DNA of 46,449 nucleotides from Desulfomonilaceae bacterium (GCA_052144015.1 JBKQRG010000380.1:1-46449); one strand, 5' to 3'; numbered from the stretch's first letter, positions 11,583-35,835 are shown. The notes: generated by a model not told the origin, from the sequence alone. Made by a program: numbers and translations.

Positions 11583-11834
11583 TTCTCTCTATGCTGTGTG
11601 TCTGAATTGAAAACTTGCGTCGCTCCGGTTAATATTTATAGAAATGCGAAGGCTTTTTGACGTGTAAAACATCTGATAATTTTCACGAGTTTTCTATTAT
11701 CGATATGCCCAATTATTCGATGGGATTATCTAGAATGTTCGGGGGACCTGGCGTTTCGCCTTGCTTTGGTAAAACTTAGCATTTCCGGAACGGTTATTCC
11801 GTGGCTGTCGATAAATTAATGAGGAGGAAAATGC

Positions 11835-16794: not shown

Positions 16795-17112
16795 ATCAAT
16801 GGAATCTAATAAAACCACTCGACTCGGAATTCCACAGTTCCTGTGAATAAGTTGGGAGTAACCCTGTGGATATCAATCCATCCATTAGGATAATGTTAGT
16901 TTTCCAGCAGAGTGCATGATCGGGGTACACTCGGGATAATACAGTTTTGTCAATATGTTACAAATCAGCTAACCATGCTGTTTCCGGCGCTGACGATTTG
17001 CCAATGTATTTCGAACTCTTTCACATGAATGACTGATTTTCGGTCTTGTTTTCAGAAGGAACAGCATTGATACCAGTTCGCCATTAATTTTGTAACAAAC
17101 GGCAGGTCAGCT

Positions 17113-17199
17113 GTCATTGCGAGGAGTGAAACGACGAAGCAATCTCATTAGTAAGAGATTGCTTCGGGCTTGACGCCCTCGCAATGACAAATCCACGCC
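17113..17199. repeat. REP/MITE-like palindromic repeat, copy A
   Basis: GTCATTGCGAGG...GAAGCAATCTC / GAGATTGCTTC...CCTCGCAATGAC inverted arms followed by AAATCCACGCC. It is related to copies at 34803 and 34934. Confidence 0.6.
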
Positions 17200-17325
17200 C
17201 CGTGTAACTGAAGGATTTCCGTAATCACACCCTTTTACTTGAAAAACCGCTAAGCTCCTGTTACAGTCTATCGTCGCATTCACCCCTATTCTAAGGCGCA
17301 ACGCTATCCTTCAAATGAGGACATT

Positions 17326-17988
17326 TTGTTAGCGCGGGTTCATTCCGGCACGCTGATCGGGATTGATGCTCACCCAGTGGAGGTCGAAGTCGACGTTTAT
17401 CCGGGGATGGCTTCCATAGCTGTGGTCGGGCTGCCTGATAATGCGGTGAAAGAAAGCACCGCTCGGGTAAAATCGGCTATAGTGAATAGCGGATACCCCT
17501 TTCCTGTCCGGCGTATTACGGTGAACCTGGCTCCGGCCGACCTCAAGAAGGAAGGCGCGGGCTTTGATCTTCCTATAGGCGTGGGCATGCTTGCCGCGCT
17601 AAATCTTCTCCCTTCCGACAAACTCAATGATTACATGATAGTGGGTGAGCTGGCCCTTGACGGCCGCATTAAAGCGGTTCGAGGAGCCCTGAGTATCAGC
17701 CTGGCTGCACGTGAACTCGGTTTCAAAGGTCTCATTTTACCTGCGGCCAATGCCGCGGAAGCCGCGGTGGTTGAAGGCCTAAATGTCTATGGTGTTTCAG
17801 ACTTTCTCACTACAACAGGTTTTTTGATGGGCCGAGTTCCGCTGGAAGCTGCGGCGCCTGCTGTGTCCAAACCATCAGCACGTTTCTCCAGGTATCGTGT
17901 TAATTTCAGCGAAATAAAGGGCCAGGAATTCGCAAAGCGAGCAGTGGAAGTGGCTGCCGCCGGCGGTCACAACGTGTTCATGCTATGA
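17326..17988 (+). pseudogene. comM: comM/yifB (Mg-chelatase-like competence protein) 5' portion, interrupted by an insertion
   Basis: The N-terminal Lon-like domain of YifB/ComM is present (ARVHSGTLIGIDAHPVEVEVDV...VVGLPDNAVKES.ARVKSAI). The ORF stops at ...GGHNVFML*, just before the expected Walker A. The remainder is found at 30136. Confidence 0.85.
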
Positions 17989-18366
17989 CCTCTCTCGCAG
18001 CATCTCGGATGCGATGGAAGAGGACACAACGTTTTGGCGTTATGTTCTCAGTTGATACCAATCGCATCAGGTTTATGCCACTGATATGCAAGGATATTAT
18101 CTATAATCCATATCATTCTTTTCGATGACCGGTTTTTACGCCACTCGGCCGAAAAAGCCAAACAGGAACAAGATAGAGACCGGATTTTTTCAAATGGGGC
18201 GACACTAACAACCTTGCCGTACAAGAGCATGCGCGCTCAAGGAATAAAATAAATAAATATAAATAAATGGAATATCTTATTTATATAATAGATTATATTA
18301 ATCTTATTACATCTAGTAATCTATAGTTATTTTGTTATAACTCATGATTTATATTTGACCGTTCCT

Positions 18367-18750
18367 TCAAACGATCTGCTTACAACGCTCCGTGTTTTCA
18401 GATAGATAATCGTATTTATTTTTTTTGCAAAAAATTACCTGTGGTGAATGTCTAGCGATCTGAGAAAGTGGCTGAGGATTGATTTGACGAAGGCTCAGCG
18501 GGTTTTGTGCATCGTTTTTATCTTTGGGTAGCACTCCCAATAGTATTCGGTTGCGATGGATACCATAGACGGATGCCAATAAACCTCCATATCTGAAGCC
18601 GAATCTGGATTTGCAGAAAATCAGACCCAGGGTGATATCCGATTGGCGAATAGGTCGTGAAAAGTTTTCAATACCTATTCGCATGAACCACCCGACACGG
18701 AATACAGGGCTGCGATACTGATGAACGCATGGGCATATATGCACATTCAC
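18367..18750 (-). CDS. hypothetical protein (element)
   Basis: 127-aa ORF at the left arm of the element, downstream of the recombination operon. No recognisable motif. Confidence 0.3.
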   Translation of the reverse strand: MNVHICPCVHQYRSPVFRVGWFMRIGIENFSRPIRQSDITLGLIFCKSRFGFRYGGLLASVYGIHRNRILLGVLPKDKNDAQNPLSLRQINPQPLSQIARHSPQVIFCKKNKYDYLSENTERCKQIV

Positions 18751-19057
18751 TTATTCGCGGGTAATTTTAATGTGCTATGGGCAATGAGGTAGGGAGTGTG
18801 GGTGTGCGATGATAGGCTTGTTCTCAAAAATCTTCCGGATTTATCGTGTCAGGTAGGACCCTTCTTTTGGGTCCCATATTTTTGTTTAGGAAAACAGTAT
18901 AGGGGCTATGGGGGGTCTTCTTCTAGTTATGATGCAGTATTTCCCATAGTGGGTCGTTCCAAAAGCACTAAAAGCCCTGCCTACAAATCCAACCTGAGCA
19001 CGTTCACAAAAAGACCTCTCTCATTGGATGAGGTCTTCTTGTTTGTCTTTCGGTTTC

Positions 19058-19228
19058 CTACCTGTGATGCTTATGGCCACCACCTTTTCCTATGCCGGTG
19101 CCACATGAACCGCCCCACTTGCCTTCACTGGTGATAATTGGTTCGTCGCTGGGTGTCCAAATGCTGGCCAGTGCTAGGTTGTTGAAGAGCAAGGCAACTA
19201 GACAGACCATGATAACGAATGTTTTCAT
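19058..19228 (-). CDS. small secreted Gly/His-rich peptide (56 aa; below the ORF-track cutoff)
   Basis: By my translation of the minus strand this reads MKTFVIMVCLVALLFNNLALASIWTPSDEPIITSEGKWGGSCGTGIGKGGGHKHHR. A GGAGG RBS lies 8 nt upstream and a clear signal peptide is present. Confidence 0.35.
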   Translation of the reverse strand: MKTFVIMVCLVALLFNNLALASIWTPSDEPIITSEGKWGGSCGTGIGKGGGHKHHR

Positions 19229-19281
19229 CGTTCATGCCTCCTTTTTGGTTTATTCCATTGTTGTGTAGATATAGCCGGCGA

Positions 19282-19608
19282 TTATGAGCCAAGAGTTTCG
19301 TCAAGGCTTTTCTCATCCTCGCTGGCGGGCAGAAGTCCCTCTTTGGTAAGGTCCTGTTCCAGTTTCGCCTCGGCTGCTTCCATACGTTCAGCCGCACTTC
19401 GCAGAATTATTTCCGTTCGCTGTCCGGATTCGTTGATCCTTCTCAGCAGCCCGCCCATTCTCATCGCTCTGGCTTTGAACATATTGGCGGTTTCTTCAAG
19501 AAACTTGCCGATTACGCCCGAGTTGGGCGGTTGAAGAATTACTTCTGTGGACGGCTCATACGGAACCAGCTCGGCCGGTTTACAGTTGGCTTCTTTGCTT
19601 CTCGGCAT
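19282..19608 (-). CDS. hypothetical protein (element recombination operon)
   Basis: An AGGAGGG RBS lies directly upstream of the ATG. The 108-aa protein has a charged, helical C-terminus (AAERMEAAEAKLEQDL). Confidence 0.55.
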   Translation of the reverse strand: MPRSKEANCKPAELVPYEPSTEVILQPPNSGVIGKFLEETANMFKARAMRMGGLLRRINESGQRTEIILRSAAERMEAAEAKLEQDLTKEGLLPASEDEKSLDETLGS

Positions 19609-19623
19609 AGTAATCCCTCCTTT

Positions 19624-20382
19624 CTACCATTCGGCGCATTCTTTTGCCCAGGCGCACTGGCTACAGTGCCAGTCTTCACGTGGGAACCATACGCCCTGCT
19701 TAATACCGTTCCATACCTGATAGAGCAGTTTGACGAATCGGTGTCGGTCATCTTCGGTGCGGCTCGTGTCGTACCTCACCATCTCTGGGGTCTTGGACTT
19801 CGTCAGCACGTCCAGCCGCAAGTTCAAAGCATCCTGCTCAAATCCCAATACGTCAGCTCCCAACGAGTAGGCCGTCAACTGAAGATTGCTTTTAACGCTT
19901 GCATCGGTCAATTTCTTGGAGGCGGTCTTCAGATCAACAATGGTGATGGTTCCGTCTGCTGACTCCTCGATCAGATCGATGTAGCCTTGGAAAGACGGTA
20001 GCCTGTCCAATGGGGCTTCAAAGAATTCTTCCACGCCGACTATGGAAACAGATGGATCGTAAGCCTCATGGAATACGGTCAGCAACTGATTGGCCTTCTG
20101 CATCAGGGAGTTCTCATTATCGCCGTTGAAGAACTTGACCCGTTCTTTGCTCATCCAGGTATCCCGATAAACGTCCAACAACTGATCGGGACGTAGCGCA
20201 TCACCTTCCAAACAGCTTTGGTAAAACGCTGCTGCCGCCTCGTGGATCGCTGATCCAAATGCCAGTGATGCTGTGGTAAATGCCGGAGGTATTTGCTCAA
20301 CGTATTGGAAACGATAGCGCAGCCCACAGGTCATGTAGGTGTTGATCTGGGAATAGCTCAGATGAGGCTCTTCTTGTGTCAT
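19624..20382 (-). CDS. Cas4-like / RecB-family PD-(D/E)xK exonuclease
   Basis: YSQINTYMTCGLRYRFQYV (N-terminal Cys plus a motif I-like segment), IDLIEES...IVDLKT (D...D/ExK core) and a C-terminal CSQCAWAKEC cysteine cluster, as in Cas4-type Fe-S nucleases. An AAAGGAGA RBS is present. Confidence 0.75.
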   Translation of the reverse strand: MTQEEPHLSYSQINTYMTCGLRYRFQYVEQIPPAFTTASLAFGSAIHEAAAAFYQSCLEGDALRPDQLLDVYRDTWMSKERVKFFNGDNENSLMQKANQLLTVFHEAYDPSVSIVGVEEFFEAPLDRLPSFQGYIDLIEESADGTITIVDLKTASKKLTDASVKSNLQLTAYSLGADVLGFEQDALNLRLDVLTKSKTPEMVRYDTSRTEDDRHRFVKLLYQVWNGIKQGVWFPREDWHCSQCAWAKECAEW

Positions 20383-20469
20383 GGCGCTGTTCTCCTTTCT
20401 AGGGGACAGAACGCACCTATCCTGTCCCCCTAATGCGCTTGTCTGTGTTTTCGATAGTTGTGTCTGGAA

Positions 20470-21144
20470 CTAAGCGGCGGCTTCTGTTTGCAGAGTGGTG
20501 ATAAGATGCGAAGCAGATTCACGGGTGAGGTCTTGGAAGGTGGAAGCGTTTAGCGGGCTCAGCATAGACCCAATGTCTTCATCGGTGTAATTCGCTCTTT
20601 TGGTGAGGGCATAAAGGGCTCGGCATTGAGCTTGGGTAGCTCGACCATTGCCGCCAGTTGACGGTTTTGATTTCTCCGCCGTAGCGCAATGTAGCGCTTC
20701 GGGTTTTGCTCCGTCCTTGCCAGCGCCATTGGCTTCATAGAACACTGATGCAGCCGGTTTGTTGGAACTTTGTTGGCTTTCTGACTCCGCCGGCGCAACG
20801 TGCGATACCTCTTCGGCACTGACAAATTCCAGCCCAAAACCGGCAAACCTGAGCGCCCGAGCGACGCTTCTGGTCTCGGCTAACTCAATAAGGCTCTCTG
20901 CCAGCCTTGCATCTCTTTGGCTGTTTGCGGTGCCGTAGCCGACGAACTGACCTTTGCTGGTAGCAGCACTACATTTGAAGATGGCATACTGACCGTCCCA
21001 GCTCACCATCTCAGTTTGCAGGTTGAGATTCTGGTTTTCTTCATGTGCTAAACGCAGTCTTCCACCAACGACCGGAAATACCCTGCTCTGACCGTTCACT
21101 TTTCTGGTAATGAGTTCGTCTTCTCGAAATCCGTTCGTACCCAT
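20470..21144 (-). CDS. putative Rad52/Sak-like single-strand annealing protein
   Basis: GYGTANSQRDARLAESLIELAETRSVARALRFAGFG resembles the Rad52-family core (G.G......A.E.A.T.A..RAL..FG). It sits immediately upstream of the nuclease, in a classic exo plus annealase pairing. An AAAGGAG RBS is present. Confidence 0.45.
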   Translation of the reverse strand: MGTNGFREDELITRKVNGQSRVFPVVGGRLRLAHEENQNLNLQTEMVSWDGQYAIFKCSAATSKGQFVGYGTANSQRDARLAESLIELAETRSVARALRFAGFGLEFVSAEEVSHVAPAESESQQSSNKPAASVFYEANGAGKDGAKPEALHCATAEKSKPSTGGNGRATQAQCRALYALTKRANYTDEDIGSMLSPLNASTFQDLTRESASHLITTLQTEAAA

Positions 21145-21253
21145 AGCGATGCTCCTTTCTCGGTTTATTCTACTTGTCTTTAGATTTAATGCGGGCGGGT
21201 GTGCGAGCGCAGTGCAGAATGAGGCTGATGATTGCGGGAGCTGGTTTACAGGG

Positions 21254-21463
21254 TTATTTCGGCAGATAGCGATTTCCTTGACTGGATGCCACTATCGCCT
21301 TTGTGGTGCCATCGGAAATTCTCACTAACGAATTGCAAATCATACTTAGTTCCGAAGGCGAAATGACAAATCCGTCTCGTCTCAGCCTGCGCTTTCTTAC
21401 TCGCCCTTCTTTGTCATACCACTCAGTCAGCTCTATTCGTTGATATTGCATCGGCTTCTCCAT
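21254..21463 (-). CDS. small basic hypothetical protein (element)
   Basis: About 69 aa starting MEKPMQYQRIELTEWYDKEGRVRKRRLRRDGF. It lies in the operon upstream of the SSAP. Confidence 0.35.
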   Translation of the reverse strand: MEKPMQYQRIELTEWYDKEGRVRKRRLRRDGFVISPSELSMICNSLVRISDGTTKAIVASSQGNRYLPK

Positions 21464-21479
21464 CCTTCGTACCGCAAAG

Positions 21480-21674
21480 CTAACGTGGCAAACTGTAAGG
21501 GTTGCGTTTGAAAATAAGAGCAAAAGCAAGCTTGCTCAGCAAACTCATTGCACTGAATCCCAAAATGGCGCAATCAAGGCCACTAACTTTGAGGTCGTGC
21601 TGCGTCTGCACTTTCTTTACCAGCTGTCCATCTCGGTAATACGGATGTTCCGAATTCCATCTGAATGTGGGCAT
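21480..21674 (-). CDS. small hypothetical protein, first gene of the leftward element operon
   Basis: An AAAGGAGG RBS lies 5 nt upstream of the ATG (MPTFRWNSEHPYYRDGQLVKK...). The tail is hydrophobic. Confidence 0.45.
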   Translation of the reverse strand: MPTFRWNSEHPYYRDGQLVKKVQTQHDLKVSGLDCAILGFSAMSLLSKLAFALIFKRNPYSLPR

Positions 21675-22196
21675 TATTCGCCTCCTTTCATGCTTGCGTG
21701 AGTGTTTCACAGGCGTCTTCTATTCTATCCCTCAAATGAAAACCCACTAACCCTTAAATATAGAAAAGAACGGAAGATGCGGAAGGGCGCACAGGCAAAA
21801 AACGATATAGTGATCTGATGAAATGACTTTCAGAAGACGGTGGTCATCGTTAGGGGGTGAACTCTTGTCCTCCTGCGAAGAATTTGAGGACGGTTCTTTC
21901 ATGCCGCGAATTTATTCGTTCGATCACCTTGAGCGCTTCATCTATGCGCCGACCTTTAATTTGTGCAAGATTGTTTCTGACCGCAAAAAATAACCTATTG
22001 CAAAAAAAATTAATGCACAATGGACGCTTGGAACCAACAAATTTCTTGACACAAGTCACTCATTAAAGTCACAATACCGCATCCCATTTCTGCACGAATT
22101 CTAGATGTCAACTTTGTTCATCTCTCGGAGAGCAGGCTGAACTGCATTGCGAGAGGGGATGGAGTTTCCAGTGTGCTCTTGGTTTAGGAGGGTATT

Positions 22197-23603
22197 ATGG
22201 TTTCCCGCCGCACGATTCTCGGCCGTGTCGGAGTGCTTCAGTTTGTCTTCGTCTTTGCGCTTGTAGGATTCGCTCACTCCCAGGGTCTTCAGACATCCCC
22301 ATACAGCGCTCCCTCAATGCTTGGGAGTGCAGAAGTTCCGAGGGAATCAAATTCACTGTACGTCTCTGACAGGATGCTTCAAGGGATTCTGCCGTTAATT
22401 CCCAATCTTCAGTTCGGCTATCTCTACGATTTCGGCAACAAGCGCGTCAGCCAAGGACGTTTCACAGCAGATTATTTGTTGCCTTTCAGCTTAAGTCGAG
22501 GTTCCACGGTATTCGGGGAAGCTCACACCGAATTTCAGAGCTTCTGGAATACAAATAGTGGATTCAGCGGTGGCTTTAATAACAGAGTTGATATATCGCT
22601 TGGCGGTGGATACCGTACATTCTTAAGGAGCAATACTCTCCTGGGAGTTAACGGCTTCTACGACACCTCTCGCCTGGGCGGCACCTGGTATTCCTCAGGA
22701 AGTGCAGGACTCGAAATGGCAGCCCTTCTACCGGGCAACGATGCTATCGATCTGAACTTCAATTGGTACGGGCAACTCTTTAACAGCAGCGTGCTTGTGA
22801 ATGCATTCCGGTACGGTCCCTCGAATTTCGATTTTCAGGCCGGTTATTCCCACGAGCTTTGGAACGGCGGACCTGATCTCCGTCTGAGTGCCACAGGGTA
22901 CAAGTTTGACATTGGGAATAGCGTGTACGGTTGGAATGCAGGGGCCGAACTGAAGTCGCGGGACGGCATGTTCGTTCTCAAGTACGCTGTCGGCCATGAC
23001 AAGGTGGACAAGACCTACCAGACTGTCGGCGGGTTCGTCAATGTGGGATTCCGCCCAGAGAACGTCTTGAACGGCGAGAGTCCCTTTGTCATGCCTGAGC
23101 CGATTTTCAAGAGTCCGCGCAGCTTGTGGTATATGCTGACTCAGAAGGTGAACAGGAATTGGCATCAGCCTGAAGCTATGGTCGTCGCACAGGCGTTCGC
23201 AAACGCGCCTCCTCCAACGCCAGGATTGTACGTGGTATATGGCCCGGCGGTCATCTCGGCTGCGGTTCCTTTTGCGACCAACCCACCGATCCCACCCCCG
23301 GCCATCTGGAGCTCTTACACATCTTTTACTATGACATGGTCGGGCGTTACCGCGTCCTCCGGTGTATTGAACAATATCAACTTTGGTCAGATTCCAACAT
23401 CGATGATTCCAGGCGGTTTTAACTTCAATTTTATACCCACTCCGTTGCCTACGTCGGGTTCGTTCTCCTCACCGTTGATCGGACCGCCAATTTACGATAC
23501 TGTTGGTCCGATTCCCCAGGGCGATTTGTTGTTCAATCGCGGTGGGGCCTTCCTCTCCATCACAATCGGACCAGGAGGATGGCTGGCCTTTCAGTTCATG
23601 TAG
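22197..23603 (+). CDS. secreted beta-rich protein (outer-membrane or surface cargo of the element)
   Basis: Signal peptide MVSRRTILGRVGVLQFVFVFALVGFAHSQG. The composition is Gly/Asn/Phe/Tyr/Ser-rich, typical of beta-barrels, with a Pro-rich segment and an aromatic C-terminus (LAFQFM). Confidence 0.55.
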   Translation: MVSRRTILGRVGVLQFVFVFALVGFAHSQGLQTSPYSAPSMLGSAEVPRESNSLYVSDRMLQGILPLIPNLQFGYLYDFGNKRVSQGRFTADYLLPFSLSRGSTVFGEAHTEFQSFWNTNSGFSGGFNNRVDISLGGGYRTFLRSNTLLGVNGFYDTSRLGGTWYSSGSAGLEMAALLPGNDAIDLNFNWYGQLFNSSVLVNAFRYGPSNFDFQAGYSHELWNGGPDLRLSATGYKFDIGNSVYGWNAGAELKSRDGMFVLKYAVGHDKVDKTYQTVGGFVNVGFRPENVLNGESPFVMPEPIFKSPRSLWYMLTQKVNRNWHQPEAMVVAQAFANAPPPTPGLYVVYGPAVISAAVPFATNPPIPPPAIWSSYTSFTMTWSGVTASSGVLNNINFGQIPTSMIPGGFNFNFIPTPLPTSGSFSSPLIGPPIYDTVGPIPQGDLLFNRGGAFLSITIGPGGWLAFQFM

Positions 23604-23772
23604 GGTGATCCGTTCCTGGAAGCAATACCAGATCCAGCCCACTCGACCCACCTATGGCAGTACTTTCCAAGCCGCTTCATCCTCCGATGGGGCGGCTGAA
23701 CGCCATTGGGCCTCGCGGAGTAACGGGGGCATTCCTCAGCACTGCGATTGATCCCGGACAGTCACGACCGTT

Positions 23773-23964
23773 TCAGGCTTTTTGCCGACTTCGAAAGCTC
23801 AAAAGCCGGAGAGCGTCGAACTTGTCGATGGTCTTCTGCGCTAGGGTCAGCCCATGTGGACTAAAGTGATATCCCAGAAAATCGAATCCTTTCTCGATAC
23901 GCCCCATACAGGTCTTGTCGGGGTGCTTCTGCAACTTTAGCTCGCTGAATGTCTCATTCAACAC
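23773..23964 (-). pseudogene. reverse-transcriptase remnant (group-II-intron/retroelement RT domain fragment)
   Basis: ...HPDKTCMGRIEKGFDFLGYHF... matches the KT...GF.FLGF motif of RT domain 7. Only about 60 aa are present, and no upstream RT motifs are found in any frame. Confidence 0.45.
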
Positions 23965-24338
23965 CCTTACAGCTTTCTTGAGTTTCCACCGTGTCGGAGG
24001 ATCGTACTGCCTGTGTCGGCACCATTCTCATTCGGTCTTTCTTTCGGTCTTGTCTAAATGTTCAATCGTTCCGACCGTGCGATTTGCAAAACAAATGCTA
24101 GCATCAATGCGGCATTTCGTATCCCATCCTTGCGTATGAAAATGTGCCGGGATTTTTGTGAATTCATTGTAAAAGCCTGCACAAGGATATCATTCCAGCC
24201 AAGACCGGAACTTTCCTTAGCTACTATCTCGCATTTGTAATTCAGGACCTGAGCATCTGACAGACAATTACCCAACCTGGTACTACGTTTGAGAGAGACG
24301 TCTACCGCCTCTCACCAAATCTATGGAGGTATTTTTTA

Positions 24339-24563
24339 ATGAAATTTTATGGAATCCATGCGGCCGCCGGCGAAACTGGCACCACCGAATCGACCTTGCG
24401 AAGATGGGAGTCTATGGGATTGTTTACTGCTGATCGTGTGTTTTTGGGCGACAACGAGATGAGAATTTACTCGGATCGGCTGGTTGATCTGCTCCGGCGA
24501 GTGAAGAATATCATCGACTCGGGTATGCGTGTGCGGGCTGCTTTTGATTTTCTTGATGAATGA
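24339..24563 (+). CDS. MerR-type HTH small protein (candidate excisionase/RDF or regulator)
   Basis: A GGAGG RBS is present. AAGETGTTESTLRRWESMGL is a MerR/Xis-like helix-turn-helix. 74 aa. Confidence 0.6.
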   Translation: MKFYGIHAAAGETGTTESTLRRWESMGLFTADRVFLGDNEMRIYSDRLVDLLRRVKNIIDSGMRVRAAFDFLDE

Positions 24564-24592
24564 GGATGACTGGAGCGACAATCAGCTCAATC

Positions 24593-26128
24593 TCACTCAA
24601 ACTTGACCTCAAAAGGGACATCCAAATCAGTTGCGGTGGTCATCACTTCCTTTGATATTGCCATTGCATCCCTCGTTTCTTCTTCCGGTGATTCAATCCA
24701 AATGGAATCGTGAATCATCATTACTATGCGGGACTGCATACCTTTTTCACGGAATGCCCGGTCGATAAGCACCATCGCACGCTTCACTATGTCAGCCTCA
24801 AATTGCTGCAATGGAGTGATGCGGATTTTTCGTTGCTCGTGGTCGGTGAGTCTATTGGCAAATCGGCGTACCCTTCCAAAAGGAGACGCATATGCCCGCT
24901 CATTTCTTTTCTGCTTTTTGATTTGACCGACTGTTGCATCAAAGAAATCCCCCGCTCCGGCATAGGTTTTGAAGAATCCATCAATGTGAAGTTGTGCTTG
25001 TTCAACGCCTATGCCCAATTCGGCCGCCAATGATTCAGCGCCTTGTCCAAAGCAGATCCCGAAATTGATGCTTTTTGCTTGCTGTCGGCTAACTCCTAGC
25101 TTCTCAGCGGTCTTTGAATGAATGTCCTCTCCGCGGCGAAAAGTTTCTTTGAGTTGCGTATCGCCGGACAAATGTGCGAGGAGGCGCAGCTGCATTTGAG
25201 AATAATCCGGCTTTAGCAGCACGCATCCCGGAGCTGCTTTTAACAACGGGCGATACTTTTCCTTGCTTATGGACTGGACGGGCACCACCTTACTGAAAAT
25301 TCTGCCTGTAGCGCCCCTTGTTTGTCGCCATACTGGGTGTATCCGATCTTGACCAGCGGCTCTTTCCAAGAAACTCAAGTCCTCCTGTTTGATGCGCCAC
25401 CATTCCAATATCTGCGCCACAAGAGGAATGAAGGAGAAATCCTCTAATTGGGCACCGGGATACAAGGATACGCCCCTTTTTTGGAGGAACTGATAAACTT
25501 CCGTCTTGGAAGATAGGTCTACAGGCTCACCTTGTGTTATCTCCTGTTCCCGATCCTTCAGCCGAGCGTCTAAATTTTTCAATTCTCGGGTACAGGCATC
25601 GCCGTCAACACCGACTCCGTCCAGATGCATCCTTGCCAAAATCGGAACTAATAGCAATTCAACCTCTTGATAGAGCCGCCACAGTGAATCATTCATCAAA
25701 GAGCGCAGCTTGGACGCCAAATCATAAGTGAACTTTCCATCTTGAGCCAATAAATGCCATAAGGCGTCCTTGTCCAGATCACTTATGATTGGCACTCCGT
25801 GTGGATAATCGACTCCAAGGTATTTTTGTACCAGGCGGCTAAGACGCGGTTCGTCATCAGGATCAAGCAAGTAAGCCATCAATTTGATGTCGTAAACCGG
25901 ATGAGCAGCAAAATTCCAATCCGGTATACCCGACCATTCTAAAATCCGTTTTAGACCGTGCACCGCTACTATATTATTATTTTTACTACTAAATACGTCT
26001 TCTTCCACATTCTTAATTTCGTCTCCAATCATAACGAGGTCTCCTAATCCTGTGGTCTGGCCGTATGAACGTATGAGTACACGGTCATTCAGGAGGATAG
26101 GAGGCGATATGGCTAGGATTGAGTTCAT
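24593..26128 (-). CDS. family-A DNA polymerase, Klentaq-like (no 5' nuclease domain, vestigial 3'-5' exo)
   Basis: By-eye alignment to my recollection of Taq Pol I: YDIKLMAYLLDPDD (Taq DPMLLAYLLDPSN), motif A PDYSQMQLRLLAHLSGD, motif B RQQAKSINFGICFG, and motif C MMIHDSIWIE. The catalytic Asp residues are retained. Unusual substitutions are noted in the findings. Confidence 0.85.
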   Translation of the reverse strand: MNSILAISPPILLNDRVLIRSYGQTTGLGDLVMIGDEIKNVEEDVFSSKNNNIVAVHGLKRILEWSGIPDWNFAAHPVYDIKLMAYLLDPDDEPRLSRLVQKYLGVDYPHGVPIISDLDKDALWHLLAQDGKFTYDLASKLRSLMNDSLWRLYQEVELLLVPILARMHLDGVGVDGDACTRELKNLDARLKDREQEITQGEPVDLSSKTEVYQFLQKRGVSLYPGAQLEDFSFIPLVAQILEWWRIKQEDLSFLERAAGQDRIHPVWRQTRGATGRIFSKVVPVQSISKEKYRPLLKAAPGCVLLKPDYSQMQLRLLAHLSGDTQLKETFRRGEDIHSKTAEKLGVSRQQAKSINFGICFGQGAESLAAELGIGVEQAQLHIDGFFKTYAGAGDFFDATVGQIKKQKRNERAYASPFGRVRRFANRLTDHEQRKIRITPLQQFEADIVKRAMVLIDRAFREKGMQSRIVMMIHDSIWIESPEEETRDAMAISKEVMTTATDLDVPFEVKFE

Positions 26129-26460
26129 TGATTGTTGAGATTAAGTAGTGTTAACAAACACGTATTTATATGTATTTGATATTGTGAGCAATCATTCTTT
26201 GATTGAATGCGTATCTGATTTCTTTCCAGTCTATCTTCATTTGGCTGGTTAGATTCTGAATAAACAATAATCAGAGTGAATGAATATACATATGAATATC
26301 TATCTAGTAATACAGGCTATACCAGCATAGAGTTCCTGCTATCAATAGCGAGAGGGAGCGGCGGGCGGGTACTATACTACTATTATTCCTAATTGGTAGC
26401 AAAATGAGATTTGTCCAATTACTGCTAGAATTTCTCAATTGGGAGTTGCATTGAAGATCA

Positions 26461-26799
26461 CTACTGGATTTTTGCAATCCAGACGTTTCCATTCGCGCTC
26501 AGCAATCCCATCCGAACTAGATGCCTTCGGTATCTCCCTATGGTGCTCTTGTTGACGTTGAGTGCATCGGCAACTTCAGTGTCAGTGAGTTCTACTTGAA
26601 AACGATTTCGCCGCGCTTCACCTTCTTGATTCATCAGGAGCCACAAATAGAGGCGTATGGCTGGGGAGCCAATTTTGTACGCTTTGATTACCACACCTAT
26701 GAGTTTATCAGCAGGTATTTGATTTAGAAATTCCTGTACCTGATTAGGATGATCAAATACCTGTATGGATTTACTGTCTGTTGATTTCATCATGCACAC
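26461..26799 (-). CDS. winged-helix/HTH DNA-binding protein (element regulator)
   Basis: LTDTEVADALNVNKSTIGRYRRHLVRMGLL is an HTH typical of MarR/wHTH regulators. It is flanked on both sides by AT-rich DNA. Confidence 0.5.
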   Translation of the reverse strand: MCMMKSTDSKSIQVFDHPNQVQEFLNQIPADKLIGVVIKAYKIGSPAIRLYLWLLMNQEGEARRNRFQVELTDTEVADALNVNKSTIGRYRRHLVRMGLLSANGNVWIAKIQ

Positions 26800-26972
26800 C
26801 TGTTAACGAATATCTGCTTGTAAACTCATTACGGTACTGATTGCATTGTACTAATAAATAATGGAAGAGAGAGGCACAGGCAGAGGAAAGACCATATATA
26901 CTATAATGTACAAGCATAGGCTAGTAGATTAATATAATTATGTTATTAGCTTTTGAGGGGGGCATCGTGTAC

Positions 26973-28100
26973 CTAGGTCTTTGGATTGAAAAATACCCTC
27001 CATTGTCCGTCCACAATCTTGAAGAACCCAAGCTTCTCAAGCTTCTTTCTCTGCCTCTTGACCGTTGTTTCATCTACCGCCCATAGGTCGGCAAGCTTTT
27101 TATCCGAGAGTTTGAACTCGTTTATCCGCTTTTTTCTTTCACGGGCACGCCCGGATTGATGACACCACATCCACAACCAAAGACGTGCGGCAGAGCCCAT
27201 ATCCCAAAGTCCATCTCCCAATGCCACGGATTGAGCCAAATACACATAGCCTGCTGGGGCAGGTTTATTGCGGTATTCTTCCAGTGGTGAGCGTCGAATC
27301 AAATCCACTGCCTCTTTTATGAACTGGAGCCTCTTGCCTTTGCCGCCCACCTTTGCGTCCCGCAGGTCGGGGTACCGGCTGATCAAATCATTTAATTCGG
27401 CGCAGGACACTTTGAAGCGCTTGACATAATCCTTTTCCTGCCGGGTGGATTTTAGTGGTTGCAAGGGCATACCGAACCATTTAGCGACTATTTTTTGAGC
27501 CTGAAGCATTGAACCGAACTGATGAAATGCCTTCAGTAAGCCGTATATATCAACCGAACTGCGTTTCTTGAGATCACACCACCATCTACGACAGCCCTGT
27601 GATCTGCAACTAAATCGGATCTCGGAACGATAAATGGTCATCTGAATGGCTTGGGCATACCATTCGGGGGGATCGCCTTGTGGGGGATAATGATAAAATT
27701 GCCGATCATCTTGTGAAATCGGAACTGCCCGATGACCGAGCCTGGGCGCTTGGCAGTCAAAGGTGAGCGACGGTTCATCCAAAACACCATAGCTCTCACG
27801 CAAAAAAGCACGAGTATCCGACCAGAAACGCCAGTTTTTTACGATATGAGGGCTGAATTTGTCCGCTTCATCCGGAGGGGGGAGTTCACCACCCCAAATG
27901 TCGGGCGGCAGTTGATCCTCGGCTGCGGCAATCCCAAAGGTAGAAGCGTAAGATTGCCATTCTTCCATCGTTTGATTGCGCCTGGCGTCAATTTCGTCAA
28001 TGTTTTCTTCAACGGGCAAATAAATGGAAAATTTTGCGCAGTAGTCTCGCCAAAGGCTTACCATCCAATGGTTGCGAGGATCATAAAGGTTCAGCGTCAT
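26973..28100 (-). CDS. putative replication-initiation (Rep-like) protein with a C-terminal wHTH
   Basis: The 375-aa protein has the C-terminus LSDKKLADLWAVDETTVKRQRKKLEKLGFF (HTH) and a Cys cluster (CRSQGCRRWWC). The gene sits between the integrase and the polymerase. The assignment rests on context and the HTH only. Confidence 0.35.
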   Translation of the reverse strand: MTLNLYDPRNHWMVSLWRDYCAKFSIYLPVEENIDEIDARRNQTMEEWQSYASTFGIAAAEDQLPPDIWGGELPPPDEADKFSPHIVKNWRFWSDTRAFLRESYGVLDEPSLTFDCQAPRLGHRAVPISQDDRQFYHYPPQGDPPEWYAQAIQMTIYRSEIRFSCRSQGCRRWWCDLKKRSSVDIYGLLKAFHQFGSMLQAQKIVAKWFGMPLQPLKSTRQEKDYVKRFKVSCAELNDLISRYPDLRDAKVGGKGKRLQFIKEAVDLIRRSPLEEYRNKPAPAGYVYLAQSVALGDGLWDMGSAARLWLWMWCHQSGRARERKKRINEFKLSDKKLADLWAVDETTVKRQRKKLEKLGFFKIVDGQWRVFFNPKT

Positions 28101-28282
28101 TGTCGTTCAGCAGAATTGCCTTGGTAGAATGCGTTAAGAACTCTTACACTCACTGGCTCAGATGAAGCATACCGCAGCGTAGCCAAAAATCCTACAGAAA
28201 GAGTTGATCCCTTGTAGCCAATGTCATTGACAGACACCACAGTCCGGTCGTAGGCTGTAGTTGAAAAAGAGGGGTCATACAA

Positions 28283-30139
28283 ATGGGGAAAACGGTAGTT
28301 TCCACTGGTGCAACCACTCAAGAACAGCCAGTTCCAGACACGCTGGAAAATCAGCCTAATGCCAAAATAAATGCTCCTGGCAGTAAAATAGGCGCTTATA
28401 TCCGTGTATCTACCCAGGAACAGGAAGCGCAAGGCACCCAAGAGGCTCAAAGAAATGCTATCAACACCTTCTGTCTTTCTCGTGGGCTAGATGTGCAGGA
28501 ATGGCTCGAAGAGCAAGAAAGCACCCTGAATTTTGAAAGACCAAAGTTTAGAAGGCTCCTAGAACAGGTCCGCTCAGGAGAAATCAGCACTATTGTGGTA
28601 GCTGCTTTGGATCGTTTCTCCCGTGATCAAATAGAGACTCTACAGGCTGTTGAATTGATAAAAAAGGTAGGAGCCTCTTTTTATTGTATCAGAGACAATA
28701 TTAATATTACCAATGGGAAAGCTGATTTTGCTTCTGAAATGGTCATCAGTGTGATGAGTCTCTTTGCACGGAATGAGCGAGAAACTATAAAAATTAGGAC
28801 GATGTCCGGAAAACAGCGAAAACAGCAGTCTGGAAAATGGATCACCGGACAAGCGCCCCTTGGTTATGAATTAGACAGACAGACCAAAATCCTTAGAGTC
28901 AATAGCGCAGAAGCAGCTATTGTGAGGCATATTTTCAATCTCAGGCTGGACGGAAGAGGCGGGATAAAAATTGTTAAACTCCTTAACTCAGCGAGCCCCC
29001 CTTACGAAAGGCGATATCAATTCAGAGGCTCTAGATACTGCCAAGTCAGCCAAAAACAAAGAACGGCTTCTTATTGCAGGGTGCGTTCTCTTCATGATGC
29101 TTATAAACCATGTTCTGGCTGCGTACTACAGAATGATGCAATTGATATTACGGGAACGTCCTGGTCCCTTACCCTAGTGAAGAAGGTGCTAAAGAATCGG
29201 GTATATTTGGGAGAACTTAAGATTGATGGTAAATGGAGTCCTGGTGCTCATAAACCCATAATTGATAAGGCCACCTTTGATACGGTGCAGGACTTGCTGC
29301 GAAAAGCATACCGCCAGCCATATGAATTCTATCCTAAGAATCCTCTATCTGGATTGGTACATTGTGGTTGCGGTAGGCGCATGTATGCGACTGCCAGTTT
29401 TCACACTCAAAAGAAAACGGGGAAACCAGGCACAAGATATTGGGCTTTTGTGTGTCCTAGAAAAAAGCTTGGAAAATGCAACCAACCGAATGTACCCATA
29501 CCGATGGTAATGAAACTCCTATTCAAACGCATAGATAGGATTCTTCAGAATCCCGAGACCGGTGAGATTATTAAGCAGGCCTATGAAAGGATTCTTTCCG
29601 AGAGTAAAGAGAGTGAGCCTGATACAAAGGAATTGAAAAGAGAGCTACAGGAAATTACCCAGGAATTAACCCGTTTGACACGTGCGTATACTCAGGCAAC
29701 ACTGGCTGGAATCAAGGATGAAACTCTAACCGAGCTACTTGACCGGATTAAGATTTCAGAAGAGCGCAAACAAAACATTGACACCAAAATAAAATTTTTG
29801 GACATTCAGAAAAACGAATTGAAAGACGAACTACAGGCCCTATCGTATGAACAACTGATAACCCAGCTTTCCAATCTGTGGATGTACTTTTCAAAGGAAC
29901 CCCTGAAAGGCAATGAGGTTGTGGGGCGAATGATTAGAGCATTTGTAAAACGAATAGAAACGACGCTACCAACAGAAAAATTTCCAGAGCACCGTGGACT
30001 CCGGATAACCCAAAGATTTGATAAGAAACTTTTGGAGCAGCCACTAAATCAGCTGCTCCAAGCTGTTATGAGACTGCACAGATTGGGCAGAAATCAGCCG
30101 CACATGGAGGCTGCAACACAGGACCGATCATCCTCATGA
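28283..30139 (+). CDS. large serine recombinase (integrase)
   Basis: N-terminal resolvase domain [10 protein letters not shown] (catalytic Ser) and LDRFSRD, a recombinase domain, a zinc-ribbon (CGCGRRMY...C) and a long coiled-coil. Its stop codon (30137-30139) overlaps the resumed comM ATG. Confidence 0.9.
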
Positions 30140-31011
30140 TCGGTCCGCCGGGATCAGGCAAGACAATGATTTCCCAGCGTATTCCCACCATTCTGCCTGA
30201 GCCGATATTTGACGAGGCCATTGAAACTACGAGGATCTATTCCGCAGCAGGACGCCTGGGACGCAACGGATCGATCATGACTATTCGGCCGTTCCGCTCT
30301 CCGCACCATACAGTATCGGATGCAGGCCTTATAGGCGGTGGGATGATACCTCGGCCCGGCGAGGTTTCGCTGGCCCACAATGGGGTGCTCTTTCTGGACG
30401 AATTACCCGAGTTCCGCAAGAACGTGCTGGAAGTGCTCCGGCAACCATTGGAAGATGGTCAAGTCACGATATCCCGCGCGCAGATTGCGATTACATTCCC
30501 CGCCCGGTTCATGATGGTAGCTGCCATGAACCCCTGCCCGTGCGGGTACCGGGGAGATCCTAAACACAATTGTAACTGTTCGGCACAAACCATACAGCGC
30601 TACTGGAGCAAAATTTCAGGCCCATTACTGGACAGGATAGATATCCATCTGGAAGTTCCTGCGGTAGAATGGCGTGATCTTACGGCCACGAAGGATGCAG
30701 AATCCTCGGAGAACATCAGGGGACGCGTCAGTGAAGCACGGCAGATTCAGCTCGCACGTTTGGCAGGGACCGGATTATATTCCAACGCTCAGATGGGATC
30801 GCCCCAGATTAAGAAATTCTGCCAATTATCAGATCAATCCATGTCATTTTTGGAAAAGGCGGTGGAAAAGCTAGGGCTGTCGGCCCGAGCGTATCACCGC
30901 ATCCTAAAGATCGGCAGAACCATTGCGGACCTGGAAAAGGCTGAACATATCCAAACAGCCCACATCGCCGAAGCCGTGCAATATAGATCTCTCGACAGGC
31001 GGTATGATTGA
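30136..31011 (+). pseudogene. comM: comM/yifB 3' portion (AAA+ Mg-chelatase domain), separated from its 5' part by the insertion
   Basis: Starts [11 protein letters not shown] (Walker A), followed by [10 protein letters not shown] (Walker B), the Zn-finger-like [15 protein letters not shown] and the C-terminal Mg_chelatase_C region. Joining it to 17326..17982 gives ...[17 protein letters not shown]... in frame. Confidence 0.85.
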
Positions 31012-31699
31012 CTCGGTCGCGTGGATGATTTGTAAAGTAATAGAGCAATGGATTATTAGCTCCGTTGTTGGAAGAAGAATGATTTTCGGAAAGCGGATAT
31101 CCCGGGGGCAACCCTTTTGCAAAAGGTGCTCCGCGCACGGCGAACAATGCCTTTGTGCAAGCATTAAGTTAATCGAAGGCACGGGGCATTGAGCTGCATT
31201 GTTGGCCCCACGCCCAGTGGACCGGGACCCCCTTTCCGAAAACTCTTAAATAATTGCGGAGGGGCGCTGGGATAGCGACAGGTTTGCTTACCCGCACACG
31301 AGCTCATGAAGCATATTTTAGGAGTTCTTTTCGGGGGCCGGGGGGCGGTTTTCTTATTAATAACGTTCGATCTCTTTTCTTCTGGAGAAGAAATGCTTGA
31401 GCCGGCTCTCCAACTTACCTGTTTTATGAGTGAAATAGTGTCAGCCTGCCCCACCTTGCAGGACAGTGCTCACCCTATCACCAGCATATTAGAGTTTTTG
31501 CCGGAGGGGCCGGGAACCGGCTTTTTGCACAAAAAGCGGGTTCCCGGTGGCCTTCTCAGCGCCCCTGCTGATTCTTTGGCGAAAGATCCCAGCAGGCCGT
31601 TTTGGTTGCGGCCGCAGGCAGCGGCTTGCAAGAAAGAGCCGCCGGGAATCGCTGCGGAGCTAAATAAACAATCCATTGTGCAAGAAATCGGGGGAACAA

Positions 31700-34123: not shown

Positions 34124-34507
34124 CTATGTCATGGCCCGCTTTGCTGCATCAAGCAAAAATGCCGATCGGGACATTTTGTGCCGTTTTGCATAATCGTCGA
34201 TGGATTCCAAGTCACGCTCGGGAATTGTAATATTGATCCGCTTTGTCTTGGTATCCGGCACAGTAACAAGAAACGGCACAGCACCTGCATTGGCTGGATC
34301 AGCCATAATTTCATCGAGAGAACAAGGCTCGGGGATAGGCTCTGCGTCTTCCATCATACCCTTTATATGAAATCTAAGAGCCTCCGCGGCCCTCTTGTGA
34401 GCCTCTTCCAAGGTCGTCCCAACCGTTATGCAACCGGGGAAGTCAGGGAAATCGACCCCAAAATCACTGTCTTTTTCTTTGCGAAGCAATGCTATATAGG
34501 TTGCCAT
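34124..34507 (-). CDS. hicB: HicB-family antitoxin with a C-terminal RHH
   Basis: MATYIALLRKEKDSDFGVDFPDFPGCITVGTTLEEA resembles the HicB N-domain. The C-terminal KRINITIPERDLESIDDYAKRHKMSRSAFL is a CopG/RHH fold. Confidence 0.8.
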   Translation of the reverse strand: MATYIALLRKEKDSDFGVDFPDFPGCITVGTTLEEAHKRAAEALRFHIKGMMEDAEPIPEPCSLDEIMADPANAGAVPFLVTVPDTKTKRINITIPERDLESIDDYAKRHKMSRSAFLLDAAKRAMT

Positions 34508-34509
34508 TT

Positions 34510-34719
34510 CTATGACCTCTTGCGGATGTCTTCCCTCAGTGTCAGCCCCGACTGGCGCCTTATACTGGCTAGGGTAGCGTCCAGGATGTCCTTGACAGGG
34601 TGCGGAGCAGTCACGCTGCCCGGCTTCGTTGGGTGCTTGAATTGGACATGATCGCCTTCCTGACCAACCTTGTACCATCCATCAGCCTTGAGCCTTTTTA
34701 TGAGTTCCCGGCTATCCAT
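34510..34719 (-). CDS. hicA: HicA-family mRNA-interferase toxin
   Basis: MDSRELIKRLKADGWYKVGQEGDHVQFKHPTKPGSVTAPHP matches the HicA consensus (ELIK.L...GW...R..GSH..F.HP). It lies 2 nt upstream of hicB. Confidence 0.8.
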   Translation of the reverse strand: MDSRELIKRLKADGWYKVGQEGDHVQFKHPTKPGSVTAPHPVKDILDATLASIRRQSGLTLREDIRKRS

Positions 34720-34802
34720 CTTTATTATACACACTCATACACATCAGACAAGGAGGTTGGTAAAATCAATAGTGACCCTTCGGACACGCTCGGCCAGGGA
34801 AT

Positions 34803-34893
34803 GTCATTGCGAGCGCAGCGAAGCAATCTCTATTCTCCTGCGTGGCTGGCAAAAGCCGCGAGATTGCTTCGTCGCTTCGCTTCTCGCAATGAC
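34803..34893. repeat. REP/MITE-like palindromic repeat, copy B
   Basis: GTCATTGCGAGCGCAGCGAAGCAATCTC ... GAGATTGCTTCGTCGCTTCGCTTCTCGCAATGAC with the internal loop motif TGCGTGGCTGGCAAAAGCC. Confidence 0.6.
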
Positions 34894-34933
34894 AAGTTGG
34901 AGCCCGCCATTGCGACCGCGTAACCCGAGACCT

Positions 34934-35044
34934 GTGATTGCGAGCGGAGCGGAGCAATCTCCTTCCTCATGCGTGGCTGGAAAACCCGAGATTGCTTTCC
35001 CGCGGAATGCGGAATTTCCCTCCTCGCACAGACAAATCCACGCC
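34934..35044. repeat. REP/MITE-like palindromic repeat, copy C (degenerate)
   Basis: GTGATTGCGAGCGGAGCGGAGCAATCTCC ... the same TGCGTGGCTGGAAAACCC loop ... CCTCGCACAGAC followed by AAATCCACGCC, as in copy A. Confidence 0.55.
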
Positions 35045-35199
35045 CATCCTGACTCAGGGGTTGCAATCAATAACATGGTGGCATGGAAGTTGACTTCCAC
35101 AGACTAATCGTGGGCTCCTCTTTCAGAATTGAATATCAACAGCGATCCGCCACTGGCAAGGAAAGGAAGTCCAAACCAGCTACCTCTGTTCTTCTTTCA

Positions 35200-35814
35200 T
35201 CATGGGAATCGGGCGCCTTCCAGGCGCCCGTGCTGAGTTCGAGCATCGTAGTCGGATTGTCTTTTCCTGCAATCTTCAACGAGACGGTGGCCCATGGCGT
35301 TAACGTCTCTTTTTAGTCCGTCGCAAGTTGCGTGTGGCTTCATGCCGGCAATTGCGCGCTCAATTTGAACGGCAGCTTCCACTGCAATGACCCTGTGCCT
35401 GCGTTCATGCTTTATTAAGGCTACAATATAGTTATCCCATTTCTGCCTCAATTCCTCAGGTGCGTTTGACCGATCTATCCACTTTGGGAAAGTAAATTTA
35501 ATCCGTACCGTTGTGTTTGCCGAAGTTATCCAGCAATTGGTACTGTTAGATCCGGACAGATAGCGCCAGCTCACATTCCAGTTCGTGTTTCCACGATAAG
35601 TTTTGCCGTCACTCCCTTTTACGCCGAACTTGTTCAGTTGAGTTCTAAGTTCTTCAGCGCTGCTACCTCTAACGTTATAGTAAACATTCTCTTCAGTAAC
35701 TGTGGGAGCAGCGTCAACAGGTGAAGATGTGATTACAATGATGAAAACAGGGAACAGGAGACACTGAAGAAAAACACGCACGAAACTGCTCCGGCGACGT
35801 GCTGTGAAAACCAA
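35200..35814 (-). CDS. secreted DUF922-like putative Zn-metallopeptidase
   Basis: A signal peptide and an HERRH (HExxH) motif are present. The DUF922 assignment is from memory of the family. Confidence 0.5.
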   Translation of the reverse strand: MVFTARRRSSFVRVFLQCLLFPVFIIVITSSPVDAAPTVTEENVYYNVRGSSAEELRTQLNKFGVKGSDGKTYRGNTNWNVSWRYLSGSNSTNCWITSANTTVRIKFTFPKWIDRSNAPEELRQKWDNYIVALIKHERRHRVIAVEAAVQIERAIAGMKPHATCDGLKRDVNAMGHRLVEDCRKRQSDYDARTQHGRLEGARFP

Positions 35815-35835
35815 AACTGAGCTTACACTTCCTTA

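Follow-up and report, generated by a model that had tools for sequence, protein, structure and literature searches.

An integrated element carrying a large serine recombinase splits comM (yifB) in a Desulfomonilaceae bacterium

The window analysed in this study, 46,449 nucleotides from a Desulfomonilaceae bacterium (GCA_052144015.1, JBKQRG010000380.1:1-46449), contains two separate open reading frames (ORFs) that resemble the two ends of ComM (YifB), and the second is directly preceded by a gene for a large serine recombinase (LSR, integrase; gene int). This raises the question of whether the two are parts of one gene and, if so, what came between them and how. The comM gene was originally a single gene and is split by an integrated element. 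Very probably, this is a 12,156-bp integrative element that was inserted into the chromosomal comM by its own LSR. Coordinates of the features are given in Table 1.

The ORF of the N-terminal part of comM (N-part) as found (17326-17988, +) encodes 220 amino acids (aa) with the end ...AAAGGHNVFML*, of which the last Leu and the TGA come from the element. Its Pfam matches are PF13541 (ChlI, E 1e-44) and PF01078 (Mg_chelatase) at profile positions 2-27; the ORF of the C-terminal part (C-part) takes up the PF01078 profile at positions 27-205 (E 1e-82) and also matches PF13335 (Mg_chelatase_C, E 2e-34). Because the two parts meet at one profile position, they are adjacent pieces of a single protein, which is broken in the codons immediately preceding the Walker A motif. 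The original prediction, made from the sequence of the window, that the two ORFs are colinear halves of ComM/YifB is borne out by these profile positions and by alignment to contiguous homologues, and a protein search with the joined translation returned full-length matches to intact YifB/ComM with up to 98% identity. Deletion of one core copy (12,156 bp, for example 17983-30138) leaves ...HNVFMIGPPG and a ComM of 509 aa, the modal length among ComM homologues. The rebuilt protein has a ChlI/Lon-like N-domain, an AAA+ domain with the Walker A sequence GPPGSGKT, and Mg_chelatase_C in colinear order. It aligns over 100% of its length to the uninterrupted 509-aa proteins P0001 (98% identity, 501/509 residues), P0002 (94%), and P0003 (94%); more distant intact homologues, from Desulfomonile or Desulfomonilaceae, carry the NCBI name "YifB family Mg chelatase-like AAA ATPase." The proposal that a normal ComM can be rebuilt in frame stands, but its details do not: the deletion put forward (17983-30135, 12,153 bp) gives ...HNVFMMIGPPG and is one codon (3 nt) short, the protein has 509 rather than about 511 aa, and the element of 12.15 kb becomes one of 12,156 bp.

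The gene for P0003 sits on L001, a 149-kb metagenome contig with an uninterrupted comM. The gene order on L001 is that of the window both upstream of comM (recA, T2SSE ATPase, TauE, PPDK) and downstream (Band_7, HicAB, nitroreductase, GltX). In blastn, L001 9908-10657 corresponds to window 17235-17982 and L001 10652-11526 to window 30133-31007, and six L001 bases, CTCATG (10652-10657), fall in both junction alignments; the TCATG that had been noted at both junctions is indeed there (17978-17982 and 30134-30138). Two objections to a split gene, that the halves belong to no contiguous ComM and that relatives share the interruption without any element, both fail: the halves align to contiguous ComM and the related L001 is uninterrupted, because a syntenic relative with conserved flanks has the whole gene.

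The intervening DNA ends, as had been predicted, in a complete LSR gene. All three domains are present, PF00239 (Resolvase, E 3.9e-29, residues 38-186), PF07508 (Recombinase, E 3.7e-14), and PF13408 (Zn_ribbon_recom, E 8.6e-8), and the catalytic residues Y39, R41, S43, D110, R111, and R114 are invariant in a 12-sequence alignment of the LSR family, with Ser43 lying within YxRVST. A resolvase-type catalytic domain, C-terminal Recombinase and zinc ribbon domains, and a length above 400 aa place the protein in the LSR class. It matches phrog_95 (integrase) in PHROG with E 9e-94, and its relatives among PDB sequences are the integrases of SPbeta, phiC31, and TP901-1; in NCBIfam the best match is CcrB, far below the curated cut-off, and XisF is among the sub-threshold matches. 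The best matches in GenBank phages and PLSDB plasmids have about 26% identity, and in IMG/VR a single-protein query found no relative and an alignment query found nothing above 26% identity. The stop codon of int (TGA, 30137-30139) overlaps the ATG of the comM C-part (30136-30138), again as predicted, and is completed by the first host base of the B' arm. The integrated gene ends in ...SSS* (618 aa) and the excised form is predicted to end in ...WRYVLS*. In the predicted circular forms of the window element (with either of the two left sites described below), L006, L007, and L039, int reads through attP to ...WRYVLS*; the integrated genes stop 5-24 codons before this end, at a TGA completed by host DNA.

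The attachment sites locate the boundary more closely. The candidate attB is GGTCACAACGTGCTCATGATCGGTCC, and the predicted attP has an outer form, GGACCGATCATCCTCATGCTATGACC, and an inner form, GGACCGATCATCCTGGCGTTATGTTC. In attR, CCTC is the centre of a perfect inverted repeat of 11 bp (30121-30146). The attR sites of the family align as CAT(C/T)-CT-N-ATGATCGG, with N varying like the wobble base of a Leu codon (Table 1); since CT is constant in the six aligned sites and the next base is the host Leu wobble base, the boundary between element and host lies at CT. Dyad symmetry is 12/20 at the CT register in both the rebuilt attB and the attP of the window, compared with at most 8 at 15 other registers, and reaches 14/20 in the attP of L007 (binomial p 3e-5), where GGACATATC...GATATGTCC surround an 8-nt spacer centred between C and T. 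The crossover is thus likely to lie at 17977-17978 / 30133-30134, a YT dinucleotide at the left edge of TCATG, to judge from these symmetries and alignments, and the additional CATG identity to the right of it appears to be half-site similarity. A crossover within TCATG, as first suggested, is disfavoured by both dyad symmetry and family comparison. Such a position (TC, CA, AT, or TG) fits the window alone, and is rejected because the identity ends at T in L007 and in the inner unit of L006. The symmetry of attB would follow from the protein encoded, because the Gly-Gly codons (GGCGG) mirror the Pro-Pro codons (CCGCC). The window element lacks long terminal repeats, in keeping with integration by an LSR, and likewise has no terminal inverted repeats.

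In the mechanism proposed here, integrase dimers would bind an attP of about 40-50 bp within the 3' end of int and an attB of about 40 bp in comM, which is conserved and quasi-palindromic and encodes AAGGHNxLMIGPPG. Both duplexes would be cut at the central CT, which makes up positions 1 and 2 of the Leu codon ahead of Met-Ile-Gly-Pro-Pro-Gly, and the half-sites would rotate and then be religated, according to the standard LSR model. The outcome is visible in the sequence itself: comM is divided into an N-part of 219 codons and a C-part of 291 codons, and the int ORF is shortened by a TGA that host sequence completes.

Close relatives of this LSR amount to only about 15 proteins in 5.8 billion, with 38-71% identity. 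Genomic context was recovered for nine of them, which with the window's own gives ten distinct LSRs, and nine of the ten sit at one and the same codon of comM, eight reading in the direction of the gene and one inverted. The gene is broken at residues 213-222 beside the LSR of the window and beside eight relatives. P0123 (L002/L010), P0121 (L008/L009), P0128 (L003/L004), and P0131 (L040) are followed by a comM C-part starting at the same ATG as in the window; P0122 (L006), P0135 (L039), and P0126 (L007) are followed by the C-part and have the N-part on the contig too, both junctions being visible in these three. The inverted case is P0134 (39% identity; L005/L011 11840-12508, from the Desulfomonilaceae metagenome-assembled genome JTS-AC162), in which int converges on a 220-aa comM N-part ending in ...GGHNMLML*. 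This arrangement, with the same codon and the opposite orientation, agrees with an attB that is quasi-palindromic and takes its polarity from the central dinucleotide alone, and such symmetry makes sense of the inversion seen in L005. From the same genome scan, 11 distant LSRs (22-29% identity) served as a negative control, and none adjoins comM. Only int is common to all elements of the family. The elements of the window and L010 additionally share the polymerase and the 375-aa protein, and those of the window and L006 share the 468-aa protein; cargo of other members includes AbiJ/Abi_C with a methyltransferase, BrxC/BrxD-like proteins with a DEAD helicase, a sigma factor with a Dam methylase, a tyrosine recombinase, and MerR/TauE. 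Across Desulfomonilaceae one LSR family targets this codon of comM while the cargo is unrelated, which identifies the integrase and its att sites as the mobile chassis.

The int genes of L002/L010 (10001-11890) and L039 (9457-11026) are broken into two or three ORFs, and tblastn aligns both over their full length. This is either real decay or the result of frameshift errors; both are ENA assemblies, of the series ERZ250394xx-ERZ250395xx.

Several observations weigh against insertion of an integrative element by its own LSR. The central dinucleotide is TT in the attL of the window and CT in its attR, and the same is true of L006; this agrees with a clean LSR product, or with the crossover placement first suggested, only if something further is assumed, either a later C>T change or a mismatch-tolerant event. 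A second attL-like site makes the left boundary of the int-bearing unit ambiguous, at 12,156 or 12,099 bp. One LSR of the family, P0129 (42% identity; L041 4079-4209 / L042), lies elsewhere than comM: its gene and a convergent response-regulator/GGDEF gene overlap at their 3' ends, where the sequence GATGGTATTGCCACCGGCC resembles the comM B' arm, and the site may be a retargeted or secondary attB. No candidate for a recombination directionality factor (RDF) was recognised among the element ORFs with Pfam and PHROG. Neither an excised circle nor an attP was found, a scan of JGI metagenomes and IMG/VR for the P' motif having given attL and tandem sites and no clean P-CT-P' junction, and the argument for mobility is a comparative one. 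Finally, the function assignments of the 375-aa and 224-aa proteins are weak.

The dinucleotide mismatch has a counterpart in the protein. CT is found at this position in the empty site of L001 and at both junctions of L007, L039, and the inner unit of L006, and the N-part of L039 is 97% identical to that of the window yet has CT at both junctions. The T at 17977 makes the Leu codon a Phe codon in the rebuilt ComM; at this position 118 full-length homologues have Leu (102), Ile (12), or Val (4). The junction Phe is the only one of the 509 residues not seen in these homologues, the other seven differences from P0001 all being residues that are present in other homologues. As a random substitution it is unlikely, being the sole unseen residue and exactly on the crossover. 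One possible source of TT is a C>T change that arose once the element had integrated; since LSR excision is blocked when the central dinucleotides do not match, such a change would lock the element in place and hence persist. Another is the rare integration of a TT-core attP into a CT-core attB, and a TT-core attR exists in L040. The attL and attR of an LSR element must share their central dinucleotide. By this rule the window copy, with TT in both attL candidates and CT in attR, may no longer be able to excise. Given the junction Phe and the second attL-like site, the gene can be rebuilt in frame, but precise excision at the present day is not assured.

The second attL-like site lies 57 bp inside the outer junction, and its GGACACAACGTT-TT resembles the true B arm, GGTCACAACGTG-TT. 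The P' motif GGCGWTATGTYCTYAGTTGA occurs once in the window, at 18036-18055, with 0.01 occurrences expected by chance. In the attL of L006, L007, L024, and L029 the B arm is followed by (CT/TT)-GGCG(T/A)TATGTCCTTAGTTGA, and near-identical variants are present in L031 and L039. The comM frame is restored only through the outer site; the inner site would leave a 57-bp insert with a TGA. The 57-bp segment may be the stub of an earlier tandem unit or a duplicated half of attP. Second sites are also found in L006, 2.8 kb inside the array and behind a TauE/HAMP/MerR segment, and in L031, about 760 bp inside. By analogy with staphylococcal cassette chromosome (SCC) arrays, the second sites of the window, L006, and L031 might reflect tandem accretion.

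Extra copies of the P' arm, arranged in tandem within arrays, were observed in L006 (401-420 and 3238-3257), L031 (about 355-380, and 1132-1151), and L027 (1585-1604, -), and the arms preceding them are neither comM nor the int-side P arm. In L027 the site precedes, by about 860 bp, a comM with no interruption up to the contig end. These copies may be integrase-less passengers or rearranged arrays. In L024 (1784-3806), L031 (1-380), and L029 (1036-1170), the comM fragment left of attL begins only at residue 93 or 171. A MazF/PemK-like toxin gene precedes the fragment in L024 and L031, and L024 also has genes resembling those of helix-turn-helix (HTH) antitoxins. In these three metagenome contigs comM may have been hit a second time upstream, with the N-part decaying.

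Table 1. Features of the window and aligned attR sites of related elements.
Feature	Coordinates (strand)	Length or composition	Content or matches
comM/yifB N-part	17326..17982 (+)	codons 1-219	Lon-like ChlI domain and first 26 AAA+ domain positions
Outer attL	17953..18002 (+)	B arm ...GCCGGCGGTCACAACGTG, putative central TT (17977-17978), element arm CATGCTATGACCTCTC	
Segment between outer and inner attL-like sites	17979..18035 (+)	57 bp	in frame with int in hypothetical circle
Inner attL-like site	18022..18055 (+)	B-arm-like GGACACAACGTT, TT, P' arm GGCGTTATGTTCTCAGTTGA	P' arm conserved in family
Hypothetical protein	19282..19608 (-)	108 aa	from ORF list; no family match
PD-(D/E)XK / Cas4-like exonuclease	19624..20382 (-)	252 aa	PF12705 E 1.9e-34; phrog_69 exonuclease E 3e-29
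Protein of phage-associated family	20470..21144 (-)	224 aa	phrog_11717 E 1e-8
Protein with hydrophobic, signal-peptide-like N-terminus	22197..23603 (+)	468 aa	weak PF11924 IAT_beta E 4e-4, below curated cut-off
Family A DNA polymerase	24593..26128 (-)	511 aa	PF00476 E 1e-58; phrog_17 E 6.5e-72; NF004397 positions 376-879
HTH protein, putative regulator	26461..26799 (-)	112 aa	sub-threshold HTH_Crp_2 and HTH_IclR; CII-like PHROG match
Protein with C-terminal winged-HTH-like region, divergent from int	26973..28100 (-)	375 aa	weak DnaD-like/replication-initiator PHROGs, E 0.004-0.008
LSR (integrase), int	28283..30139 (+)	618 aa	last gene of element
attR	30109..30158 (+)	P arm ...GGACCGATCATC (30121-30132), central CT (30133-30134), B' arm CATGATCGGTCCGCCGGG	
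comM/yifB C-part	30136..31011 (+)	291 aa	Walker A onward and Mg_chelatase_C
Aligned attR, window		...GGACCGATCATC-CT-C-ATGATCGG	
Aligned attR, L002		...GGACACATCATT-CT-G-ATGATCGG	
Aligned attR, L003		...AGACATAACATC-CT-T-ATGATCGG	
Aligned attR, L006		...GGACACATCATT-CT-T-ATGATCGG	
Aligned attR, L007		...GGACATATCATT-CT-C-ATGATCGG	
Aligned attR, L039		...GGGCATAACATT-CT-C-ATGATCGG	

What kind of element this is depends on its other genes. The polymerase is 50% identical to that of the L010 element; its relatives in GenBank phages have at most 31% identity, and a single-protein query of IMG/VR found no close one. The 375-aa protein, 33% identical to a 340-aa protein beside int in L010, is a putative replication initiator. 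The 468-aa protein, 55% identical in tblastn to its counterpart in the L006 element (3802-4773), is possibly an outer-membrane beta-barrel protein, judging by its N-terminus and weak profile match. For the 224-aa protein there is no match in Pfam, NCBIfam, or PDB, and neither it nor the 375-aa protein gave anything usable in PDB sequences, NCBIfam, or PADLOC; ten small ORFs of the element have no Pfam match and a single, chance-level PHROG match. No capsid, terminase, portal, tail, or lysis family was found with Pfam or PHROG in the 20 ORFs (at least 56 aa) tested. Pfam and NCBIfam scans of the element ORFs found no relaxase or type IV secretion system family, oriT not having been searched for, and the same scans of the element found no transposase family. 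A tRNA-targeting island is ruled out, since Rfam and tRNA scans of the window gave no match. The cargo looks like a replication and recombination module and not like a virion, and the description that suits the element best is a small integrative island of non-phage type, or possibly a satellite. Candidate anti-phage cargo was noted in two related elements: BrxC/BrxD-like ATPases with a DEAD/Cas3-like helicase in L040 (385-5842), and AbiJ_NTD4/Abi_C with an N6/N4 methyltransferase in L006 (7578-9459).

The alternative that survives best, although it is unlikely, is that the element is a temperate phage, a decayed prophage, or a phage satellite using the virion of a helper, the LSR being a phage integrase proper. 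LSRs are typical of temperate phages, the LSR matches phrog_95, the polymerase, exonuclease, and 224-aa protein match PHROG families derived from phages, and the nearest precedent for the target, the sr1WO group discussed below, is a prophage. However, the element is only 12.2 kb long, none of the structural or lysis families is found in its ORFs, no relative above 26% identity is known from IMG/VR or GenBank phages, and sister elements have non-phage cargo (AbiJ/Abi_C; BrxC/BrxD with a helicase; MerR/TauE).

It is considerably less probable that the element has been domesticated as an intervening element or "active lysogeny" switch, in which conditional precise excision would give back ComM and with it natural transformation or recombination. 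The features that would suit a switch are a precise, in-frame insertion, undamaged comM halves with 98% identity to a functional allele, an int gene that adjoins comM and reads in its direction, and XisF among the sub-threshold matches of the LSR. Cargo that is unrelated between members and an orientation that can flip are instead the behaviour of a mobile element and not of a vertically inherited switch, and near-identical hosts have no element (P0001) or a different one (L039). The attL and attR of the window differ at the inferred crossover, no RDF was recognised, and in L024 and L031 the 5'-truncated N-fragment beside a MazF-like toxin-antitoxin cassette indicates an old interruption that is irreversible there. 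It would be similarly surprising if the locus were a reversible transformation switch operated by an unrecognised RDF, with translation coupled across the conserved overlap of the int stop and comM start (ATGA), yielding, during integration, an N-terminally truncated ComM AAA+ fragment that hinders recombination of incoming DNA, and with tandem arrays holding integrase-less passengers, which would arise because some element arms mimic the B arm and regenerate attB. An assembly chimera, in which a mobile-element contig was misjoined into comM, would be conceivable in that the window is probably metagenomic, but has a negligible probability, as both junctions are at the same comM nucleotide, removal of the insert restores the frame, and the same junction architecture occurs in independent NCBI, ENA, JGI, and Logan assemblies.

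Insertion of an LSR-driven integrative island into comM has partial precedents. In Wolbachia, the sr1WO group of prophage WO has an LSR and integrates into a magnesium chelatase gene, portions of which lie on both sides and from which attB can be rebuilt through attL and attR; for WOVitA1 (KX522565) its own attP has been reported and is not placed at the magnesium chelatase gene (PMC9203015). The window likewise has an LSR element splitting a "magnesium chelatase family" gene; however, sr1WO is a full tailed prophage of an alphaproteobacterial endosymbiont, while the present element has 12 kb, no virion genes found, and a host in Desulfomonilaceae. The target of sr1WO is presumably a ComM/YifB-type AAA+ protein, as Wolbachia makes no chlorophyll. 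Tn7-like AbaR islands and other, defence-carrying elements break comM of Acinetobacter baumannii within its MgCh domain, and transformation is lowered as a result (PMC11472951). The statement in the original prediction that comM is an insertion hot spot is therefore documented (PMC11472951; PMC9203015). The window element resembles the AbaR/AbGRI islands (Tn6019/Tn6022 family) in the gene, in the MgCh/AAA+ domain hit, in the variable cargo, including defence systems, of its family, and in the outcome, loss of an active transformation helicase. AbaR islands, however, move by Tn7-like transposition (TniA/B/C) with target-site duplication and terminal inverted repeats, while the window element has a serine integrase and neither transposase nor terminal repeats were found.

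SCC elements (CcrAB/CcrC) at rlmH/orfX of staphylococci are similar in being LSR-driven, non-phage islands with variable cargo at one conserved chromosomal site, and their tandem composite arrays also take in passengers that have no recombinase. Their LSRs, however, are only distant relatives of the one in the window, and SCC inserts at the 3' end of rlmH and spares the gene, whereas the window element splits comM mid-gene. Genes are split in frame by LSR elements in several other bacteria, for example comK by Listeria A118/phi10403S, spsM by SPbeta (SprA), sigK by skin (SpoIVCA), and fdxN of Anabaena by the fdxN element (XisF). These share with the window an LSR at the element end and a host gene that precise excision can rebuild; however, their excision has been shown experimentally to be regulated and tied to development or infection, and the comparative data for the window element favour ordinary mobility. 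Myxophage Mx8 has its attP inside the coding sequence of int, so that integration alters the C-terminus of Int. The attP of the window element is likewise within the 3' end of int, the tail of which is changed by integration, although Int of Mx8 is a tyrosine recombinase and not a serine recombinase.

The class of event is thus already known, and this is the first described case in the Desulfomonilaceae lineage. It represents a third, mechanistically independent convergence on comM after the Tn7-like AbaR islands and sr1WO, which supports the view that elements gain by disabling the transformation helicase. It also provides a fully bounded serine-integrase island in an environmental deltaproteobacterial lineage with almost no described mobile-element biology. 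About ten orthologous LSRs with natural attB/attP pairs, CT and TT cores, and both orientations are of possible interest for genome engineering.

Some minor features were noted within the element and around comM. The stretch at 18000-19280 of the window is AT-rich (about 41% GC), with a 56-aa signal-peptide-like ORF (19058-19228, -) as its only convincing gene, and may hold regulatory or origin sequences. A 40-nt direct repeat with 70% identity occurs inside the element at 19234-19273 and 21149-21188; read on the minus strand, both copies finish with a Shine-Dalgarno-like AAGGAG immediately ahead of the start of the 56-aa secreted peptide or the 224-aa ORF, and the repeat may be a shared regulatory or ribosome-binding-site region. 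Outside the element, a sequence of about 135 bp lies downstream of comM in the window (31222-31355; also 31624-31687) and is present in L001 as two inverted copies flanking comM (9571-9764 and 11666-11800), where the segment upstream of comM is the reverse of the window DNA downstream of comM. The pattern suggests a small rearrangement mediated by repeats, or a repeat resembling a miniature inverted-repeat transposable element. Between Band_7 and HicAB, L001 has about 2.6 kb (14614-17205; DUF4411 and an HTH_3/Peptidase_M78 pair) with no counterpart in the window, and between HicAB and the nitroreductase gene the window has about 1 kb (approximately 34282-35829) that is absent from L001; by this comparison, the Band_7-HicAB-nitroreductase stretch appears to be a second variable spot near comM.

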